Source: Aestuariivirga sp. (GTDB lineage: Bacteria > Pseudomonadota > Alphaproteobacteria > Rhizobiales > Aestuariivirgaceae). From it: 62,873 nucleotides of DNA. The position numbers and the translations under genes are program-made. The stretch spans positions 1-62,873 of the forward strand of contig JADCDC010000149.1 in NCBI GenBank assembly GCA_020252385.1, given 5' to 3'. The notes under the pieces were generated by a model, which was not told the DNA's origin, ran no database searches, and saw only the letters and a list, made by a program, of their open reading frames with translations. Shown here in pieces: positions 3,540 through 62,873 of this stretch (position 1 is its first letter; each line of letters opens with the position of its first letter).

Positions 3540-5588
3540 TCAGTTCTCCTTTTTGTAAGCCGCTTCAATGCGGCGGCAGGCAATCTCAAAGTAGTCGGGG
3601 TCACGCTCAATGCCGATGAACCGAAAGCCCTCCAGCATGGCGCCCTTGCCCGTCGAGCCAGAACCCATGAAGGGATCCAGCACGACACCCCCGGGCGGGG
3701 TCACTAAGCGACACAGGTAACGCATCAACTCCGTCGGCTTGACGGTGGGGTGGTTGTTCTGCCTCGGCTTCCACCGGCCATACGGGTTCCCATCCTCGCC
3801 CTGCGCGGCTTTCTCCGCGTGGTTGGGGCGGAACTCGCTGGCCGCACTCGCCTTGCGCTCCATGCCCTCCAAGCCCTCGTCGCGGTCGCGCTTGCTGGCC
3901 TTGGGGCAGTAGAAGAACCGCGCGGCTTCACCCAGCAGGCCAGCGGCCTCGTCGCCGCCATCGTGGATCAGGTTGGCGGGCCAGCGACCCTCGGCGTCGG
4001 GCTTTGCGTCGCGGGCGTAGTTGCCGCCGCTCATCTCCCGGTTCTCGGAAGCCTTGGAGCCCGTCTGGCTCCAGCCCGACACGTCGTCGGTGTCTCGACC
4101 TACTCGACACCCGTCAATGTTCAGCGCGCCCGTGCCGTAGGTCTGGACGTTCTCCGCCACCGTGCCGGTCAGGGGCTTGCGGGCGACGGTGACGGGCTCA
4201 AGGGCGGGCTTGAGAGAAGTGCCAAACCCTTGCCACTGGCGGGCAGCGTCTGTGGCGGGGGCGGTGATGGCGCCCGGGTTGCCGGCGTAGTCGCCATACG
4301 CCGATGTGTCGACGGCGCGCGTCTGCTGCGTAGCCTTGCGGGCGTCAAACCCCACCACCTCCCGCTCCGCACCCGCCGCCTTGTCAATCGCCTTGCTGAC
4401 GTCCAGCGACTTGGGGAAGCCGGAGTTGCCAGTGACGAACACCTTGCCGTTCCGCCGGGCCACAAAGGCACCGGTGCTCACGGTGGGGCACCAGATCAGC
4501 CCGCTGTATCGGATGGCGGAGACGGTTGCCAAAGTGGCTGAATAGCTTGACCGTGCTCGTACCGCTTGTGCTCCGCGTTGGTCGCAAAGAGCATCAAGTT
4601 CCCCAGCCGGTTGTCCGTCGCGTCGTGGTTGATGTGGTGCACACACTCCGTCCGGGTAAGCGGGCGCCCGATGGCTTCCGCCACCTTCAGCCGGTGAAGC
4701 ATCACGTATCCGTCCTTCCGGGCCATGGCCTTGAACGCTTCCGGGCACCGGACGTAGGCTATTCGCTGCGTAGCATACCGACCCTTGCGGCTGAAATACG
4801 TGACCCCACCCTTCCACGCCGGGTTGTTCGGCCCTGTCATTTTCAGCGCGTAGCTTTCCCTGCTGGCGGCGGTCCAACCCGCGCGCCCCTTGTGCGCGTG
4901 CTTCGCCCAGTCCTGTCCCCGGTAGTAACCGTTGCACTGCCGGCTGCAATACCGCACCGCGTCCTTGCGGTACGTCACAAAAATCGTCTGGCAATGTGGG
5001 CACGATTTCCACGCCAGCGAGTTCATCCGCCGGTACGAATGTGAGCACTCCGCCTCGTTCAACAAGGCAACGATGTCCTCGGCTGACGATCTGGTCTGTG
5101 TGATCCGAGACAATTCGGTAGGCGGTATCCTGCTCGACACGATATTCGCTCCACCGGAGCGGCGTCTCCCATTGGTAAACGTCGTTCTCAACATCATACG
5201 CCAGAACCCTCTCGTGCTTGGCTGTATGGTAGGGCATCCACCCCTTGTCGGTCAACACCTCGGAGTCCTCGCTCAGGCACCCGTAACACCACATGATCAT
5301 GTCCCTGATCTCGAACCCGGCGTCCTCGATCCGCACGGCCATCCGGTGCTGGGTGCGCGTCCCGGCGAAGGCCAGCAGGTGAGCGCCGGGTTTCATGACC
5401 CCCAGCACCGCAGCCCACAGCGCCTCGCTCGGCACGTCGTAGTCCCACCGCTTGCCCATGAACGACAGGCCGTAGGGCGGGTCGGTGACGACCGAGTCGA
5501 CCAGGTCGCCCACGAACGGGAGGCCGGGCACGATCTCCAAGCTGTCGCCGCAATAGAGCGTGGCATCGCCGATCTGCTCAACCCTCAA
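3540..5588 (-). CDS. DNA adenine methyltransferase (N6/N4 family, beta order) containing an intein
   Basis: VTDPPY, HPTVKP and VLDPFMGSGSTG motifs. The WCYG|SGFPKS motif is split by a 285 aa insertion, giving a 397 aa spliced product. Confidence 0.92.
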   Translation of the reverse strand: MRVEQIGDATLYCGDSLEIVPGLPFVGDLVDSVVTDPPYGLSFMGKRWDYDVPSEALWAAVLGVMKPGAHLLAFAGTRTQHRMAVRIEDAGFEIRDMIMWCYGCLSEDSEVLTDKGWMPYHTAKHERVLAYDVENDVYQWETPLRWSEYRVEQDTAYRIVSDHTDQIVSRGHRCLVERGGVLTFVPADELAGVEIVPTLPDDFCDVPQGRGAVLQPAVQRLLPGTGLGEARAQGARGLDRRQQGKLRAENDRAEQPGVEGWGHVFQPQGSVCYAANSLRPVPGSVQGHGPEGRIRDASPAEGGGSHRAPAYPDGVCAPHQPRRDGQPAGELDALCDQRGAQAVRARSSYSATLATVSAIRYSGLIWCPTVSTGAFVARRNGKVFVTGNSGFPKSLDVSKAIDKAAGAEREVVGFDARKATQQTRAVDTSAYGDYAGNPGAITAPATDAARQWQGFGTSLKPALEPVTVARKPLTGTVAENVQTYGTGALNIDGCRVGRDTDDVSGWSQTGSKASENREMSGGNYARDAKPDAEGRWPANLIHDGGDEAAGLLGEAARFFYCPKASKRDRDEGLEGMERKASAASEFRPNHAEKAAQGEDGNPYGRWKPRQNNHPTVKPTELMRYLCRLVTPPGGVVLDPFMGSGSTGKGAMLEGFRFIGIERDPDYFEIACRRIEAAYKKEN
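4425..5279 (-). mobile_element. Intein in the methyltransferase (285 aa)
   Basis: Starts CLSEDSEVLTDKGW, block B VSRGHRCL, ends WCPTVSTGAFVARRNGKVFVTGN followed by +1 Ser. Removal restores YGSGFPKS. Confidence 0.9.
4496..5026 (-). CDS. Zn-finger plus HNH homing endonuclease overprinted in the +1 frame inside the intein
   Basis: CPHC...YCSRQC, GPNNPAWKGG, DGYVMLHRLKVAEAIGRPL...VHHINHDATDNRLGNL. Start uncertain: ATG at 5026, frame open to 5197. Confidence 0.88.
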   Translation of the reverse strand: MNSLAWKSCPHCQTIFVTYRKDAVRYCSRQCNGYYRGQDWAKHAHKGRAGWTAASRESYALKMTGPNNPAWKGGVTYFSRKGRYATQRIAYVRCPEAFKAMARKDGYVMLHRLKVAEAIGRPLTRTECVHHINHDATDNRLGNLMLFATNAEHKRYEHGQAIQPLWQPSPPSDTAG

Positions 5589-8014: not shown

Positions 8015-8044
8015 AAGGTAAACGCTTGCGTTGCGGGGCGTCAA
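8015..8044 (-). promoter_or_regulatory. Sigma70-type promoter for the Cro/primase unit
   Basis: TTGACG-18 nt-TACCTT just upstream of the SD. Confidence 0.55.
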
Positions 8045-8973
8045 GCACTCCTGACGCGCTCCGCCGCCATCGCTGCGTATTCGGGGTTGAGTTCACAGAG
8101 GATGCTGTTGCGGTTGTTGCGGGCGGCGACGAGGCCAGTGGTCCCGGCCCCGCCGAACGGGTCCAGCACCGTCCCGCCTTCAGGGCACCCGGCGAGGACG
8201 CAGGGCGCGATCAGGTCCGGCGGGAACGTGGCGAAGTGAGCGCCCTTGAACGGCTTGGTGGTCACGGTCCAGACGCTGCGGCGGTTCCGCATCCCGTCGT
8301 AGACCTTGTATTCAGGCGGGCGAGAGTTGACTCCCGGTTGCGCCGCGCGCGTGGCGCTGCCCTTCGCGGCCTTGGTCCCCGCCGGATAGATGGCGGGCTC
8401 CTTCATCGCCTCACTGTCGAAGTAGTAGCGAGGCCCCTTGGACAGCAGGAAGATATACTCGTGCGCCTTGGTGCAGCGGTCCTTCACGCTCTCCGGCATT
8501 ACACCCGGCTTGTGCCAAATGATGTCCTGCCGAAGGATCCACCCGTCCGCCTGTAGGGCGAAAGCGACCCTCCAGGGGATGCCCAGCAACTGCTTTGAGT
8601 GAACGCCGGAAACCTTTTTGCGGGTTGCGTACGAGGTGGCCCGATCCTGAGCCGCTTCGATGTAGGCGCTGGGGCTGTTGCAACCGAAGTTGGCGAGGTT
8701 GGCTTGCACGGCCTTTGATTTCGGGCCGGCATAGCTATCCCCCAGATTCAGCCAGAGGGTGCCGTCATCCCGCAGGACCCGGCGCACCTCGCGGAACACC
8801 TCGACCAGCTTGGCGACGAACTCGTCAGGGGTTTGCTCAAGCCCGATTTGCCCGGCGTGGCCGTAGTCACGCAGCCCGAAATACGGGGGCGAGGTCACGC
8901 AGGTGTTGACGGACTGGTCGGCCATCGCCCGCAAAGACGCGAGGCAGTCACCGACAACGATCTTGCAGGTCAT
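8041..8973 (-). CDS. DNA amino-methyltransferase (SPPY type, likely N4-cytosine)
   Basis: VTSPPYFGLRDY, WLNLGDSY, IIWHKP, HEYIF, HFATFP, VLDPFGGAGTTG. Confidence 0.92.
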   Translation of the reverse strand: MTCKIVVGDCLASLRAMADQSVNTCVTSPPYFGLRDYGHAGQIGLEQTPDEFVAKLVEVFREVRRVLRDDGTLWLNLGDSYAGPKSKAVQANLANFGCNSPSAYIEAAQDRATSYATRKKVSGVHSKQLLGIPWRVAFALQADGWILRQDIIWHKPGVMPESVKDRCTKAHEYIFLLSKGPRYYFDSEAMKEPAIYPAGTKAAKGSATRAAQPGVNSRPPEYKVYDGMRNRRSVWTVTTKPFKGAHFATFPPDLIAPCVLAGCPEGGTVLDPFGGAGTTGLVAARNNRNSILCELNPEYAAMAAERVRSA

Positions 8974-9377
8974 TTGCATGGCCACCACCCTTTGGGCTTG
9001 GGCACCTCGGCGAAGGCGCGGATCGACTTCCGAAAGTACGAGTCAAGCAGCACGCTGGCGCGCATGGGTGGCAAGATTTGGTTGTCCCTGTCGAGGATAA
9101 CGACCCAGCGGTAGTCGGAGACGTCAATAGACCCGCTGTCGGGAGAACGCCAGCCGTACGGGGTCGGCGCCGGGTCGGCTTTCAGGCGAGCAACTTCCCT
9201 GCGCAGAAAGTCGCGCTCAGTCCTGATTGAGGTCACTTCGGCTTTAAGCGCCTCGACCTCTCGGGTCAGATCGTCAACCTGTTGCAGTGCGCGTTGCGCG
9301 GTTTCGCTCCCGAACTCCGCCGCTTGACGACGGACGTCCGCTTCGGTCTCGCCGGTGAATGTGATGCTGACAGTCAT
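8970..9377 (-). CDS. Hypothetical coiled-coil protein
   Basis: ATGA overlaps at both ends and a heptad-like centre. Confidence 0.65.
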   Translation of the reverse strand: MTVSITFTGETEADVRRQAAEFGSETAQRALQQVDDLTREVEALKAEVTSIRTERDFLRREVARLKADPAPTPYGWRSPDSGSIDVSDYRWVVILDRDNQILPPMRASVLLDSYFRKSIRAFAEVPKPKGWWPCK

Positions 9378-10914: not shown

Positions 10915-11120
10915 TGCGTCCCTCGCATGTTCCTGTGAGCCTCCAGCGTCCGGCGGGCGAACGATGCAAGCACGTTGTCAGGCAGACTATCGGCCAGGGT
11001 GTAGAGGCTGGCGGACATGCCGCGTCCGATGTCGCCGAACTGCTCGGCTTCGTCGATGGCGTTGATGAGGTCGATGCGCGACGGGATGCGCGGAATGGCG
11101 GGGTGTATGTGAAGCCTCAT
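10911..11120 (-). CDS. Hypothetical protein (69 aa)
   Basis: [10 protein letters not shown]... with ATGA overlaps at both ends. The longer track ORF is a shadow frame of the pentapeptide repeat. Confidence 0.6.
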
Positions 11121-11761
11121 GCGCCAGCCCTCCGCTCGAAGAAGTCCAGAATGTCCAGCGTCTCGCGAGCCTTGACGGTGTCGGGGTATTCGGCGGCGAC
11201 ATGGGCGCGGTATTCGGGGATCGTGAACCAACGACACCCGGCCATGACCTTGTGAGAGCCGTCCGTCAGGCGGAACAGGTGGAAGGTGTAGCCGTCCATG
11301 CGTTCGGCGGCGGCGATTCGGGCAGCGAGGGTGTCCTCTTGGTATTTGGCACCGCTCATGTCGGCATCGCGCAGGCTGGCACCGCTCAGGTCGGCACCGC
11401 TCAGGTCGGCACCGATCAGGTCGGCACCGCTCAGGTCGGCACCGCGCAGGCTGGCACCGCGCAGGCTGGCACCGCTCAGGTCGGCACCGCTCAGGTCGGC
11501 ATCGATCAGGTTGGCATCGATCAGGTCGGCACCGCTCAGGTCGGCACCGCTCAGGTCGGCACCGATCAGGTCGGCACCGATCAGGTCGGCACCGATCAGG
11601 TCGGCACCGCGCAGGCTGGCACCGCGCAGGCTGGCACCGATCAGGTCGGCACCGCGCAGGCTGGCACCGCTCAGTTCGGCACCGCGCAGGTCGGCACCGA
11701 TCAGGGTTCCACCATTCGCCCATGCGACGGTGGCGAGGTGGATGATGTGCGGGTTGCTCAC
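11117..11761 (-). CDS. Pentapeptide repeat protein
   Basis: More than 20 tandem A(D/S/N)L(S/I/R)G units and a C-terminal VMAGCRWFT domain. GTG start after GGAGG. Confidence 0.92.
11360..11706. repeat. 15-bp tandem repeat encoding the pentapeptides
   Basis: Units such as ggcaccgctcaggtc, ggcaccgatcaggtc, ggcaccgcgcaggct. Confidence 0.95.
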
Positions 11762-11865
11762 AGCGCACCTCCAGCCGCCGCCAGGGCGATAAGCAGCCAT
11801 GCCAGCGCGGTGAACGCGGCGGCGGTTAGGACGGCCTCTGCGGCGAGGCGGATGAGGCGGGTCAT
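11758..11865 (-). CDS. Small membrane peptide (35 aa)
   Basis: AGGAG SD; [35 protein letters not shown]. Confidence 0.55.
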
Positions 11866-18840: not shown

Positions 18841-19347
18841 ATGGGACGCCCCCACAAGCTGAAAAGACCGCCCACCGAACGACCTGACGGCACCATCGAG
18901 ATCCACCTGACCAAGGGCTACACCGTCCTGATTGACCCCTGCGACCGCGAGTTGGCCCAACACAACTGGACCGCCCTCGCCGTAACCGACGGACATGTTT
19001 ACGCCGTTCGAGGGAAAGGTATCTTGCTGCACAGAGCCATCTTGCAGGTCGACAAGACCCTTGACGTAGACCACATCAACGGCAACACGCTGGACTGCCG
19101 CCGCCAAAACCTTCGCGCGGTCTCCGCGGCGGACAATCTCCGAAACCGGAAAATCAACCGCAACAACACAAGCGGCTTCGTGGGCGTGTCGTACGACAAG
19201 ACCAATGACAAGTGGATGGCTCGCTTGGCGCAAAAACGCCTCGGCGTGTACAAGACCGCCGAAGAAGCCAACGCCGCTAGGCTGGAGGCCGAAGCGCGCG
19301 AGTGGGGCATTCACCCTCGCCGGCAACAAGCCCACGACGCTATCTGA
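18841..19347 (+). CDS. Free-standing HNH-AP2 endonuclease
   Basis: LHRAIL..VDHINGNTLDCRRQNLR..NTSGFVGVS..KWMA..LGVYKTAEEA; AAGGAGA SD. Confidence 0.93.
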   Translation: MGRPHKLKRPPTERPDGTIEIHLTKGYTVLIDPCDRELAQHNWTALAVTDGHVYAVRGKGILLHRAILQVDKTLDVDHINGNTLDCRRQNLRAVSAADNLRNRKINRNNTSGFVGVSYDKTNDKWMARLAQKRLGVYKTAEEANAARLEAEAREWGIHPRRQQAHDAI

Positions 19348-23375: not shown

Positions 23376-23541
23376 GCCACCCTTCACCCCCATCGACCCC
23401 GTCCGCTTCGCCGCCCGCCTGTTCCCCCGCTCTTACAGCCGCCCGTTCACAGACTGGATGGAGGCTACACGGCCACGGACGGACGTGAAGGAACGGGCCT
23501 ATTGCTGGCCGAACCTGACGAGGAAGGCTTCGTGGCGATGA
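23368..23541 (+). CDS. Small hypothetical protein (57 aa)
   Basis: AAGGAGG SD; stop overlaps the ATG of the C5 methylase. Confidence 0.5.
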   Translation: MSEPPFTPIDPVRFAARLFPRSYSRPFTDWMEATRPRTDVKERAYCWPNLTRKASWR

Positions 23542-24899
23542 GGTACCTGTCCCTGTTCAGTGGCATCGAGGCTGCGAGCGTGGCGTGGGAGCCGCTTGGC
23601 TGGGAGTGCGTGGCCGTGGCGGAGGTGGACGCCTTCGCCAGCGCGGTCCTGGCGCACCGCTACCCGTCCGTCCCGAACCTCGGCGACGTGACGAAGATCG
23701 ACGCGGCGGATCTCGCCGCACTGGGTCGCATTGACCTTGTCGTGTTTGGATCGCCCTGCCAGGACCTGTCCGTGGCGGGCAAGAGGGAGGGGCTGGCCGG
23801 TGAGCGCAGCAAACTGTTTCACACTGCCGTCGACATCGTGCGATGGGCAAGGGAGTACTGCGGCTGCCGATGGGCCTTGTGGGAGAACGTCTGCGGAGCC
23901 TTCAGCAGCAACAAGGGACGAGACTTTGCAGCAGTGGTTGGCGAACTGGCGGGTGTCGACGTCCTCGTCCCGCCCAAGGGCTGGGGCACGGAGGGCGCCG
24001 CCGTTGGCACCGAAGGAATGGTCGAGTGGGCCGTGCTGGACGCGCAATGGTTCGGAGTGGCGCAGCGGCGCCGTCGCGTGTTCGCTCTCGCAGACTTTGG
24101 AGACTGGGCCAGTCGACCGCCGGTTCTTCTTGAGCCCCAAAGCCTGCGCGGGGATTCTCCGCCGAGCCGAACGGCGGGGAAAGGCACTTCCGCCGATGTT
24201 GCACCAGGCCTTGTCGCAAGTGGCCGGGGCGTCGAGCGAACCGGAGACACCCGAGGACAAGACCCTGTAGTGGCGGTTCGCAGCATCAGCACCGGAGACG
24301 TGTCCCACTGCCTGAACGCCGGCGGCATGGGGCGGATCGACTACGAGACCGAGACGATGGTCGTCGAGCCCTACACCCTCGCCATTCGCGGACGGGAAGG
24401 TGGCGCAACGCTGGAGGCCCGGCAGGACGGCCTGTCGAACGCCATCCTGACACCTACCGGCGGACGAGCGGGGATTGGCGTCGGGGCGGTTGCGTTTTCC
24501 ATCATGCCGATGAACAGCGGCAAGGACTACAAGGCCCGCGAGACGGACATCGCCCAGCCGATCATGGCGGCGGGCGGCAGGATCGGGAACCAAGGCGGTG
24601 ACGCCGTGGTAGCCTTTGCGCCCGATGTCGCCCGAAGTCTGACCGCTAGACACGACAGCAGCCCCTGTGTGGACCGTGGGATGGAAGTGGTCGCGCAACC
24701 CGGCCTCCAAGTCCGTCGCCTCACCCCCACCGAGTGCGAGCGCCTTCAGGGCTTCCCAGACGGTCATACTTTAATCCCCTTCCGCGGCAAGCCCGCGGCA
24801 GATGGCCCGAGATACAAGGCCCTTGGGAACTCAATGGCAGTTCCTGTCATGTCCTGGGTGGCCAAACAGATCGAAATTGCAGAGAGTGGCTTGACATGA
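23538..24899 (+). CDS. dcm: DNA cytosine-C5 methyltransferase
   Basis: SLFSGIE, GSPCQDLSVAG, ENV, QRRRRVF, RRLTPTECERLQGFPD, YKALGNS. Confidence 0.95.
   Translation: MRYLSLFSGIEAASVAWEPLGWECVAVAEVDAFASAVLAHRYPSVPNLGDVTKIDAADLAALGRIDLVVFGSPCQDLSVAGKREGLAGERSKLFHTAVDIVRWAREYCGCRWALWENVCGAFSSNKGRDFAAVVGELAGVDVLVPPKGWGTEGAAVGTEGMVEWAVLDAQWFGVAQRRRRVFALADFGDWASRPPVLLEPQSLRGDSPPSRTAGKGTSADVAPGLVASGRGVERTGDTRGQDPVVAVRSISTGDVSHCLNAGGMGRIDYETETMVVEPYTLAIRGREGGATLEARQDGLSNAILTPTGGRAGIGVGAVAFSIMPMNSGKDYKARETDIAQPIMAAGGRIGNQGGDAVVAFAPDVARSLTARHDSSPCVDRGMEVVAQPGLQVRRLTPTECERLQGFPDGHTLIPFRGKPAADGPRYKALGNSMAVPVMSWVAKQIEIAESGLT
23926..24270 (+). CDS. Overprinted +1-frame ORF inside the C5 methylase
   Basis: CWTRNGSEW..CSLSQTLETG..FFLSPKACAGILRRAERRGKALPPML..AL reads like a real protein. 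TTG 23926 follows AAGGGA. Start uncertain, frame open from 23731. Confidence 0.6.
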   Translation: MQQWLANWRVSTSSSRPRAGARRAPPLAPKEWSSGPCWTRNGSEWRSGAVACSLSQTLETGPVDRRFFLSPKACAGILRRAERRGKALPPMLHQALSQVAGASSEPETPEDKTL

Positions 24900-61032: not shown

Positions 61033-62873
61033 TTAGTCCCCCTTCTGATAGCGATACGTCTCGAACCCCGCTGCGGCGAGGGGCAGGCCGACCGACCACT
61101 GGGTGCCCTGCGACATGAGTGCGGCCAGGCCCTCCGCGCTGAACGACGGATCGTCGGGCGTCTCGCAGATGATCTCGTCGTGGACGTGCAGGACAGGGTT
61201 GTAGCCCGCCGCCTCCGCCGCGAGCAGGCCAGCGGCGAGGACGTCGCGGGCGGTGGCCTGTGTCAGGTTCTCGACCATCTTGCCGCCGTATGTGTCCAGC
61301 CGCTCCCAGCGTCGGGTGTATTGGTTGGTGCCCATGTAGGACAGGCGCCCGTCCTCGTCGACTTCGGGCGAGGGGTAGCAGAGGTAGCGGCCTGACGGCA
61401 GGCGGGCGCGCAGCCAGCCCCCGGAGCGCCGGAAGGCGATGGCGCTGGCCCGGTAGACCTCGCCCGGGTTGCTGATGGCGTTGCGGGCGGCGCGCTCGCA
61501 GTCATACCAGAACTTGACCGTCGCCTTGTGCTTCGCGCGCCAAGCCTTGACGATCTCAAGCACCTTGGGCTCGGGCAGGTTGACGCCGTAGATAGCGCCC
61601 ATGGCGGCGAATGCACCGACGCTCCCCTGATAGCCGCAGGCCAACTCGGGCACCTTGCCGCTGACCTGCCGCTCGTCCTTCGTCACGTCGCCGGGATCCT
61701 TGCCGAGGATGCCGCCCGCCGTGATCTTGTAGATGTCGTGCCCGACGCCGGCGTCAAACTCGCGGAAGGCGTCCAGTTTCCACTGCTCGCCCGCCAGCCA
61801 CGCCAGCACCCGCCCCTCGATGTTGGACAGGTCGGCCACGACCAGTTTGCAGCCCGGCGCCGCGACGATGGATCCGCGCACCGCGCTGGCGCACAACTCC
61901 ATGACGTCGTCGAAGAACACCGCCTCAATGCCCGCCTTCATGGCCTCAATGCCAAGTTCGATCTGCGGCTGCTTGAGGGTCGGACGCGGGAGGTTTTGCA
62001 ACTGCACGACGCGGGACGAGAACCGCGCTGTGCGAGACGCCCCGGCATATTGCATGGTGCCTCGCATCCGCCTGTCGGACGAGGTGCCGTTCACCAGCAC
62101 CCGATACTTGGCCGGGCTGGTCGCCGCTGCTTGCAGGCGCACCTCCAGCAACTCGCGCACGTCGTCCGGCACGTCGGTCTTGAGCAGGGCGGCCAGCGTG
62201 CCCTTGCGCAGGTCGTCAATCTCCAAGCCCATCGTGTCGCGCAGGTAGCCGATCATGGCGTCCCGCTGCGTGGCGCTGGGCACGGCGCCGTTCGTCATCA
62301 GCGCCGACTCCGTGGCCAGTCGCTGCCCCGCCTCCTTGGCGGCGCGCAGGGCGGCGTGGGCCAGGTCCATGTCGATCTGGATGCCGCGGTCGTTGATGGC
62401 CTGATCCAGCCGCCACACGGCCTTCTCGGCGTCGGTCCAGTTGACCTTGGGCTGGCGCTTGTAGACCTCGCGCATGGCGACGATGTCCATGCGGGCGTAT
62501 TCCTTGAACGCCTCCCATTCCGCCGGGTGCGTCTCCTTCGTGGCCCGGCGCAGCTTGCGCGTCTTGGCCTGCGGCTTGCAGAACAGTTGGATCAGCTTCT
62601 TGCCCGCCTTGTCCTTGGCCTTGTCCAGCGGGACGCCGAGGACCTCGCACTGCTTGTCAAGGGCGCCGGGCAGGCTGTGCAGCAGGCCCACGGCGAGGGT
62701 GTCGTAGATGCGGTCAACGGGCACGCGCACCTGACTGAACGACAGGACCGTGCGGTCGAAATGGCTGTTGTGAATGACGATCTGATCGGCGGCGTCGATG
62801 AGCGACTGCATCATGCCGGGGGTCGGGAACTCGACGACCTGGACCTCGTCGTCGTCCCATGCGTAGGCCAGCA
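61033..62873 (-). CDS. polA: DNA polymerase family A, main part
   Basis: HNSHFD, QLQNLPR, motif A ADLSNIEGR, motif B KVPELACGY, motif C HVHDEI. Confidence 0.95.
   Translation of the reverse strand, partial: LAYAWDDDEVQVVEFPTPGMMQSLIDAADQIVIHNSHFDRTVLSFSQVRVPVDRIYDTLAVGLLHSLPGALDKQCEVLGVPLDKAKDKAGKKLIQLFCKPQAKTRKLRRATKETHPAEWEAFKEYARMDIVAMREVYKRQPKVNWTDAEKAVWRLDQAINDRGIQIDMDLAHAALRAAKEAGQRLATESALMTNGAVPSATQRDAMIGYLRDTMGLEIDDLRKGTLAALLKTDVPDDVRELLEVRLQAAATSPAKYRVLVNGTSSDRRMRGTMQYAGASRTARFSSRVVQLQNLPRPTLKQPQIELGIEAMKAGIEAVFFDDVMELCASAVRGSIVAAPGCKLVVADLSNIEGRVLAWLAGEQWKLDAFREFDAGVGHDIYKITAGGILGKDPGDVTKDERQVSGKVPELACGYQGSVGAFAAMGAIYGVNLPEPKVLEIVKAWRAKHKATVKFWYDCERAARNAISNPGEVYRASAIAFRRSGGWLRARLPSGRYLCYPSPEVDEDGRLSYMGTNQYTRRWERLDTYGGKMVENLTQATARDVLAAGLLAAEAAGYNPVLHVHDEIICETPDDPSFSAEGLAALMSQGTQWSVGLPLAAAGFETYRYQKGD
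62733..62873. repeat. Terminal overlap, identical to 1-141
   Basis: Direct comparison of the two ends. Confidence 0.97.

Follow-up and report, generated by a model that had tools for sequence, protein, structure and literature searches.

Several inteins carry their homing endonuclease (HEN) outside the reading frame of the splicing domain. A study of actinobacteriophage inteins describes a HEN resembling endonuclease VII that is encoded in frame 3, as well as LAGLIDADG and VSR HENs in antisense orientation (Gosselin, Arsenault, Gogarten, bioRxiv 10.1101/2025.01.02.630785), and a cyanobacterial DnaX intein contains a LAGLIDADG nuclease in a +2 open reading frame (ORF) (Phillips, DeSimone, Gogarten, bioRxiv 10.64898/2026.09.14.751524). 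A hidden, out-of-frame and splice-less HNH, the ShiLan domain, is described in mycobacteriophage DNA methylases (Arsenault, Gosselin, Gogarten, PMC11855218), and a further paper gives another splice-less hidden HNH in this methylase family (PMC12613952). The 2025-26 papers call out-of-frame intein nucleases rare and leave their expression open. The window analyzed here, 62,873 nucleotides long, is the whole of contig JADCDC010000149.1 (assembly GCA_020252385.1, filed under Aestuariivirga sp.), and its methylase gene is interrupted by an intein with a zinc-finger/HNH endonuclease gene in the +1 frame. With a probability of roughly 0.72, the whole is best explained as a spliced intein together with a separate +1 HNH gene that would have its own promoter and ATG within the first 50 intein codons and would cut intein-less alleles.

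The locus shares with the frame-3 inteins of actinobacteriophages a complete intein, an open host (intein) frame and a nuclease in a separate same-strand ORF; the out-of-frame nucleases of that study typically lie outside the splicing domain, whereas here the gene starts inside it, and this is the dominant form of the family. The DnaX intein is alike in its same-strand out-of-frame HEN, disordered in-frame loop, omega below 1 in the alternate frame and above 1 in the host frame, noted Shine-Dalgarno sequence, lack of in-frame variants, and coexisting mini-inteins and empty alleles. It differs in having a LAGLIDADG nuclease, a bacterial chromosomal host gene and an ORF between the splicing domains, and neither a nested promoter nor a deep overlap is described for it. 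The ShiLan domain of PMC11855218 has in common with our locus the methylase family, a zinc-finger HNH in a shifted frame and an open host frame (ShiLan gp65 is 64% identical over the N-extein, and the hidden HNH of Mantra gp64 about 30% identical). It occupies the third frame at a different site and lacks a splicing domain, and that paper found no ribosome-binding site and left translation open, whereas here a full intein carries the HNH in +1 and start signals are detectable. The splice-less ShiLan description does not cover our locus; it fits the intein-less relatives of its HNH. A sequence-only reading of this DNA, made without database searches, had pointed to alternate-frame HNHs in actinophage methylase insertions, which PMC11855218 describes for splice-less insertions. 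The novelty that the reading suspected is lower than it supposed, since complete inteins with out-of-frame nucleases had already been published. Our literature search turned up neither a methylase intein with a +1 HNH nor a nuclease gene that begins within a splicing domain, although bioRxiv supplements and subscription journals could hold cases. New here are a family this large and uniform, a nuclease gene that overlaps the catalytic splicing domain, and concrete start signals.

An intein and a second-frame nuclease in one methylase gene

The gene, the intein and the nuclease have the following coordinates in the window:

3540..5588, minus strand: ORF of the N6/N4 DNA methyltransferase precursor, 682 aa (Pfam PF01555, E 5e-27; phrog_67)
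4425..5279, minus strand: intein, 285 aa, Cys1 to Thr-Gly-Asn, followed by Ser+1, at site YG|SGFPK (from translation, profile and models)
4992..5279, minus strand: N-terminal splicing domain, codons 1-96 (from AlphaFold2 and conservation)
5075-5073, minus strand: block B His69, conserved in 128/128 elements
4560..4964, minus strand: in-frame loop of codons 106-240, the nuclease's shadow, which is kept free of stops and predicted to be disordered
4425..4541, minus strand: C-terminal splicing domain, codons 247-285, with invariant Cys264, Thr283, Gly284 and Asn285
4496..5197, minus strand: zinc-finger/HNH endonuclease gene in the +1 frame, 233 aa, open from 5197 to a stop at 4496
4934..5002, minus strand: zinc finger (CxxC ... 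YCSxxC) of the +1 protein, with CPHC at 5002-4991 and YCSRQC at 4951-4934
4805..4834, minus strand: GxxNPAWKGG motif of the +1 protein, here GPNNPAWKGG
4565..4699, minus strand: HNH catalytic core (HR..HHINH..DN..NL..H), the full motif being found in 124/129 elements

The intein corresponds to methylase residues 104-388, and the insert frame is free of stops from Cys1 to the Thr-Gly-Asn before Ser, as the sequence-only reading had proposed; its expected extein of 397 aa follows by arithmetic from predicted splicing (682-285). The insertion is in frame at YG|SGFPK; of the 80 nearest relatives by N-extein, 76 are empty there (1 has the intein, 1 is a site variant and 2 were unparsed). No intein family was recognized in the insert by Pfam or NCBIfam models. 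A profile from 80 relatives matches the solved AceL NrdHF intein (E 1.4e-8), the AlphaFold2 model of the intein has a beta-rich core over residues 1-100 and 251-285 with pLDDT (predicted local distance difference test) values of 93-98, and inteins and HINT domains lead the Foldseek matches to that model (best E 1.6e-5), in which a HINT fold is predicted to be built from the N- and C-terminal parts. The splice motifs are complete, again as first read: Cys1 is conserved in 127/127 aligned elements and His69, Asn285 and Ser+1 in 128/128. The nucleophile is at position 1 and the penultimate residue is Gly; according to PMC5050341, the penultimate His may be Gly in phage class 1 inteins, with a spliced Gly example. 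Two of the three class 3 signature residues are invariant, Cys264 (F4 in our block numbering) and Thr283, but Cys1 is present, the signature Trp is absent, and B12 is Cys in 112, Val in 15 and Ile in 1. By default we read this as a putative class 1 intein.

The central in-frame residues had been described as resembling shadow-frame sequence, and this agrees with pLDDT values below 50 across loop residues 106-240 (135 residues) and with the host-frame ratio of nonsynonymous to synonymous change (dN/dS) of 1.6-2.4 given below. The +1 frame over the same DNA carries the HHINH..N..N..H stretch at 4639-4565, its translation matches Pfam HNH_3 (PF13392) above the cut-off (E 4e-6), and H187, H188, N196 and H210 are invariant among 100 sequences, so that the predicted protein has the His-Asn-His beta-beta-alpha-metal motif. 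The motifs and the HNH site that the sequence-only reading had placed at 4496-5026 were thus found, but the start was misplaced and is near 5197. The Met at 5026 occurs in only 5/128 non-redundant relatives and was rejected; the corrected start lies about 57 codons further upstream, within the N-terminal splicing domain.

AlphaFold2 modeled the 233-aa protein with a mean pLDDT of 88. The best structural match is I-HmuI, an intron-encoded enzyme that nicks DNA, and it is weak (residues 122-218: Z 5.2, root-mean-square deviation 4.8, 80 aligned); here, zinc fingers and an overprinted extension precede the I-HmuI-like part. Foldseek with the model gave no match at E<=0.001, a PDB sequence search with the +1 profile gave nothing better than E>=0.2, and structure matches to residues 1-78 (POTRA, eL22) had Z<=3.9 and were uninformative.

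The two frames are selected for different things

Selection was measured as dN/dS from 35 disjoint pairs. The HNH core has a value of 0.11 in +1 and 2.43 in the host frame, and the zinc-finger region 0.19 and 1.64, respectively, whereas in the C-terminal splicing domain (codons 254-284) the values are 2.28 in +1 and 0.06 in the host frame. Over the nuclease, 128 elements have 0 host-frame stops, where recoding the nuclease synonymously predicts 1328; three relatives that are free-standing have 12, 2 and 1 stops in the corresponding frame. The dN/dS values and the purged stops indicate that the host frame is selected for openness and the +1 frame for protein sequence, which upholds the earlier idea of a dual-coded element with one frame kept open for splicing. 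The dN/dS comparison of both frames in homologs, which had been proposed as a check, thus yielded frame-specific purifying selection, and its absence from the +1 frame, which had been named as grounds for rejection, was not observed. The locus combines an intact nuclease ORF in another frame, an open host frame and frame-specific selection. Taken by itself, this GC-rich genome would have an open host frame with a chance of 0.008. The GC content of host third positions is 0.82-0.93 in the exteins and outer intein and falls to 0.54 over codons 45-96 and to 0.48 in the middle, a drop that makes the second frame detectable from this genome alone.

One layout throughout a large family

We fetched 307 loci, a redundant set of which many were retrieved with HNH queries. 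In 226 of them, the same YG|SGFPK site is occupied by a complete and open intein whose HNH lies in +1, and two further complete inteins with a +1 HNH carry TGA at conserved Trp positions (L273, L274); in these two, methylase and intein are read through TGA, so the element also lives in genomes where TGA encodes Trp. The remainder comprises 7 complete inteins without HNH, and 20 loci without a findable intein end and 52 without an intein match, which were dropped. In-frame HNHs number 0 among the 228 complete HNH-bearing inteins, all of which have the HNH in +1, and the canonical arrangement with the nuclease in frame between the splicing blocks is therefore not that of this family. Among the 160 loci retrieved by the splicing-domain profile alone, the +1 HNH is found in 133 of 139 complete inteins. 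A set of 129 HNH-bearing elements with <95% nucleotide identity to each other spans a nuclease-region GC content of 33-65%; statistics on 128 elements omit L273/L274, where TGA is read as Trp. At E<=0.001, 917 protein clusters match the intein region with short extein flanks, and most of the best 120 of these cover the intein region fully at 41-89% identity; the +1 protein matched 616 clusters at the same threshold.

The same layout in 129 divergent elements argues that it is not an assembly error. Intein-covering contigs of related phages from two other studies list no indel within the intein, and the compensating indel errors raised in the sequence-only reading were accordingly not encountered; run X1, which is identical to the window and possibly its source, was left uncounted. 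Three of the seven nuclease-less inteins (L058, L198, L202) have a deletion but retain, on its flanks, either the two ends of the +1 ORF or its start, as nuclease decay would leave them. The derivatives that arose by in-frame deletion and retain portions of the +1 ORF, caught at stages of nuclease loss, are L058:2019-2615, L198:543-1013, L202:1368-1859 and L223:2019-2615.

Other insertions were seen in these genes. L006, L007 and L012 have extra HNH matches that lie downstream within the same methylase locus and in a third frame, whereas P0031, P0052 and P0122 are family members with long shadow-like in-frame inserts; the methylase gene appears to collect several hidden elements. In L002 and L003, a related C-terminal splicing block ending in Thr-Gly-Asn is found in the intein of a helicase-like gene, before the P-loop.

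The nuclease gene overlaps the catalytic half of the intein

The 5' part of the nuclease gene is shared with the splicing domain:

4992..5197, minus strand: about 69 codons read in both frames, the nuclease N-terminal extension being overprinted on the splicing domain

Across 128 elements, intein codons 45-96 contain 0 stops in the +1 frame against 260.7 expected, and 0 against 134.5 in the 64 elements with <70% identity, whereas four control regions are near expectation (239 vs 201, 42 vs 34, 222 vs 205 and 329 vs 319). The stop-free stretch takes in catalytic block B with the invariant His69. Four-fold-site entropy in codons 45-96 is 0.92 bits, compared with 1.76 and 1.88 in the outer splicing domain. 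This conservation exceeds what stop avoidance explains: four-fold sites unable to yield a +1 stop have on average about 1.0 bit vs 1.9. Change that is nonsynonymous in +1 and synonymous in the host occurs at 0.21 per site in the overlap vs 0.53 in the C-domain. RNA structure was rejected as a cause of the synonymous conservation, with -0.89 kcal/mol and 0 compensatory pairs in 59 aligned codon 44-98 regions. In the AlphaFold2 model, the overprinted part of the +1 protein is a beta-hairpin and two helices with pLDDT 90-95, in an alignment that inherits covariation from the intein frame, and free-standing and intein-less HNH relatives have no N-terminal extension. We tentatively suggest, as a possibility short of even odds, that nuclease residues 1 to 55-70 are a new folded domain that arose by overprinting on the catalytic half of an intein that works; about 200 bp would then encode two folded, selected domains, with the promoter and ribosome site just upstream in the splicing domain.

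Predicted start signals within the first 50 intein codons

The predicted signals for the nuclease gene of the window are:

5208..5213, minus strand: predicted Shine-Dalgarno sequence GAGAGG, 10 nt before the ATG at 5197
5226..5255, minus strand: predicted sigma70-type promoter in intein codons 9-18, TTGACC (5255-5250), 18 nt, TACCAT (5231-5226), 9/12 match

A start codon (ATG, GTG or TTG) at or before codon 50 and after the last +1 stop is present in 128/128 elements. ATG accounts for 123 of these starts (102.6 +/- 3.9 expected), and a strong Shine-Dalgarno sequence is found in 34 of the 128 (12.7 +/- 3.1 expected). Where a +1 stop falls in codons 29-45, a later ATG is found at codons 42-50 in 27/31 (p 2e-7). 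Promoters were scored with E. coli weights, and 61/128 elements scored >=11 against 19.4 +/- 3.6 expected. The promoter-like sites occupy three registers with a fixed distance to the ATG: codon 9 (+28 nt), codon 17 (+8) and codon 21 (+7 or +49); that of the window, codon 9, is common to 29 relatives at a score of >=8. Four controls without obvious nuclease remnants (L005, L050, L115, L263) scored 2.5-6.5. A promoter at codons 73-81 was considered and rejected, as it is not enriched (2 vs 2.8). The enrichment of starts, Shine-Dalgarno sequences and promoters in intein codons 1-50 favors internal transcription and initiation over frameshifting. Of the two routes suggested in the sequence-only reading, internal initiation is thus the better supported by predicted signals, and frameshifting, with no common slippery heptamer, is disfavored.

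Distribution and relatives of the intein and the nuclease

On a quick tree of C-exteins, built from 55 intein-bearing and 61 empty alleles that each have a complete C-extein, intein presence needs 14 changes, at least 4 of them forced by starred branches, against 39 when shuffled, and the nearest rows to the window are empty alleles. The patchy distribution fits homing, although gain and loss are not separated on this tree. The same HNH clade (63 rows, starred) also occurs in +1 of intein-less members of the same methylase family, usually just after SGFPK, and also free-standing; the HNH tree includes every third element, and L282 and probably L287 are mislabeled in it, being incomplete intein copies. 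ShiLan-like loci with a +1 HNH, no intein and an open host frame are L018-L021, L177, L188, L191, L192, L195 and L290-L293, and several intein-less copies begin at a Pro-Tyr-x-His stretch, which may encode a -10 box.

A canonical-type intein in mycobacteriophage Dorothy gp75 occupies the same YG|SGFPK site and shares the C-terminal splicing block that ends in Thr-Gly-Asn (76% over 29 aa). Between its splicing parts lies an in-frame domain, LAGLIDADG-like by eye, and the +1 frame of this intein has no HNH; the site thus hosts at least two nuclease types. Mantra gp64 (L388) has, besides its third-frame HNH, an in-frame N-terminal insert that is LAGLIDADG-like by eye, in which splicing motifs are not evident.

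A proposed mechanism and its alternatives

Under the preferred explanation, ribosomes in frame 0 would make the 682-aa precursor, in which the nuclease DNA is read as a disordered loop that would be removed with the intein (Cys1, Asn285, Ser+1). A transcript from TTGACC-18-TACCAT, with GAGAGG, would give the 233-aa zinc-finger/HNH protein from 5197. During co-infection, this protein would nick or cut near YG|SGFPK of empty alleles, nicking being suggested by its likeness to I-HmuI, and the cut empty allele would receive a copy of the whole insert in its methylase gene. Historically, a methylase-targeting HNH gene may have entered a mini-intein at the YG|SGFPK site out of frame, after which start signals would have been recruited from splicing-domain codons and the overprinted N-terminal extension gained.

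Several results weigh against this explanation. The null models take their codon usage from the exteins and count related sequences as if these were independent, and the promoter weights are E. coli values. Plain promoter match counts in codons 1-20 are only modestly enriched (>=9/12, 46 vs 32; >=10, 11 vs 11.5), and 45/128 elements score <8. The structural match to I-HmuI is weak and unaccompanied by any Foldseek match at E<=0.001. The patchy distribution is also compatible with repeated loss, 24/113 branches of the C-extein tree are starred, and sampling is biased. The closest intein pairs are just as similar to each other in their N-exteins, so that no jump of very recent date was seen; comparison of intein and extein identity is uninformative on recent homing, as the C-extein is hypervariable.

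The nuclease might instead lack a promoter of its own and be translated from the methylase mRNA, on which ribosomes would initiate internally or re-initiate; the hexamers would then be by-products of Leu-Thr and Tyr-His/Asn codons. They do coincide with conserved codons, and such an account suits both the plain match counts, modestly above the synonymous null, and the weak scores of about one-third of the elements; we nevertheless consider it unlikely, given three registers each at a fixed distance from the ATG, two of them at the 7-8 nt of leaderless spacing, and weighted promoter scores that are higher than in extein and C-domain controls at 105 paired loci (median 10.8 vs 4.0-5.0, p ~1e-15) and also higher than in each of 30 recodings. 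A programmed +1 ribosomal frameshift near intein codon 45, which would join methylase-N, intein-N and HNH in one fusion, would account for the purging of +1 stops that starts sharply at codon 45 family-wide, but codons 28-50 hold no common slippery heptamer (the top 7-mer, 58/128, consists of Gln/Lys-Trp-Glu codons), the 59 aligned codon 44-98 regions have no conserved RNA structure, and start codons turn over with the stops, which a frameshift would not need. We regard this route as highly improbable.

A slighter probability still attaches to an HNH that parasitizes the methylase gene independently, with the intein serving only as a safe harbor and the two not forming one mobile unit. The same clade does occur in +1 without an intein (e.g., L018-L021, L188, L290-L293) and free-standing (L141, L161), and these copies interleave with intein-nested ones on the tree (7 changes, at least 4 forced), but any cut at the empty site would copy both intein and nuclease, and, since the start signals and first 50-70 nuclease codons are splicing-domain DNA, the nuclease cannot leave without the intein. 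Least credible of all, with a negligible share of our confidence, is an assembly or sequencing artifact or the decay of a formerly in-frame intein nuclease. In three database proteins, P0216, P0244 and P0245, the methylase and the N-part of the intein run on into the HNH frame; they are 3 of 618 matches, stop at the HNH end without the C-splicing domain or C-extein, and are thus broken variants, whereas the +1 layout is present in 129 divergent elements, with the active site intact in 124 and a +1 dN/dS of 0.11.

With a large family, no intact in-frame form in the sample and three start-signal registers, the expression question becomes directly testable. It is also an example, supplied by nature, of a gene that overprints the catalytic domain of an enzyme. 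Annotation pipelines read such inteins as mini-inteins with a junk loop, and active homing elements are in this way undercounted.

The phage genome

The contig has an exact 141-nt terminal repeat (1-141 and 62733-62873), a GC content of 65%, and genes for terminase, portal, head protease, DNA polymerase A, helicase and primase. The window is a complete, circularly complete tailed-phage genome of about 63 kb; it sits in a genome bin of 74% completeness, and the public runs that match it best are freshwater metagenomes. No RNA run is listed among the sequencing runs that contain it, and run X17 is probably DNA. Other features of the phage are:

25313-27571, plus strand: terminase large subunit, with an insert of its own at about residues 65-323, after GRGYGK and ending Thr-His-Asn/Thr
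8041-8988, minus strand, and 23502-24896, plus strand: a second N6/N4-type methyltransferase gene without this insert and a C5-type gene, respectively
18841-19347, plus strand: free-standing HNH-AP2 endonuclease gene between two gene arms
11117-11800, minus strand: pentapeptide-repeat protein gene

In the terminase insert, where no Pfam intein domain was found, a Trp in block B and a Cys in block F are recognizable by eye, and it is likely an intein of class 3 type whose nuclease region is short or decayed.

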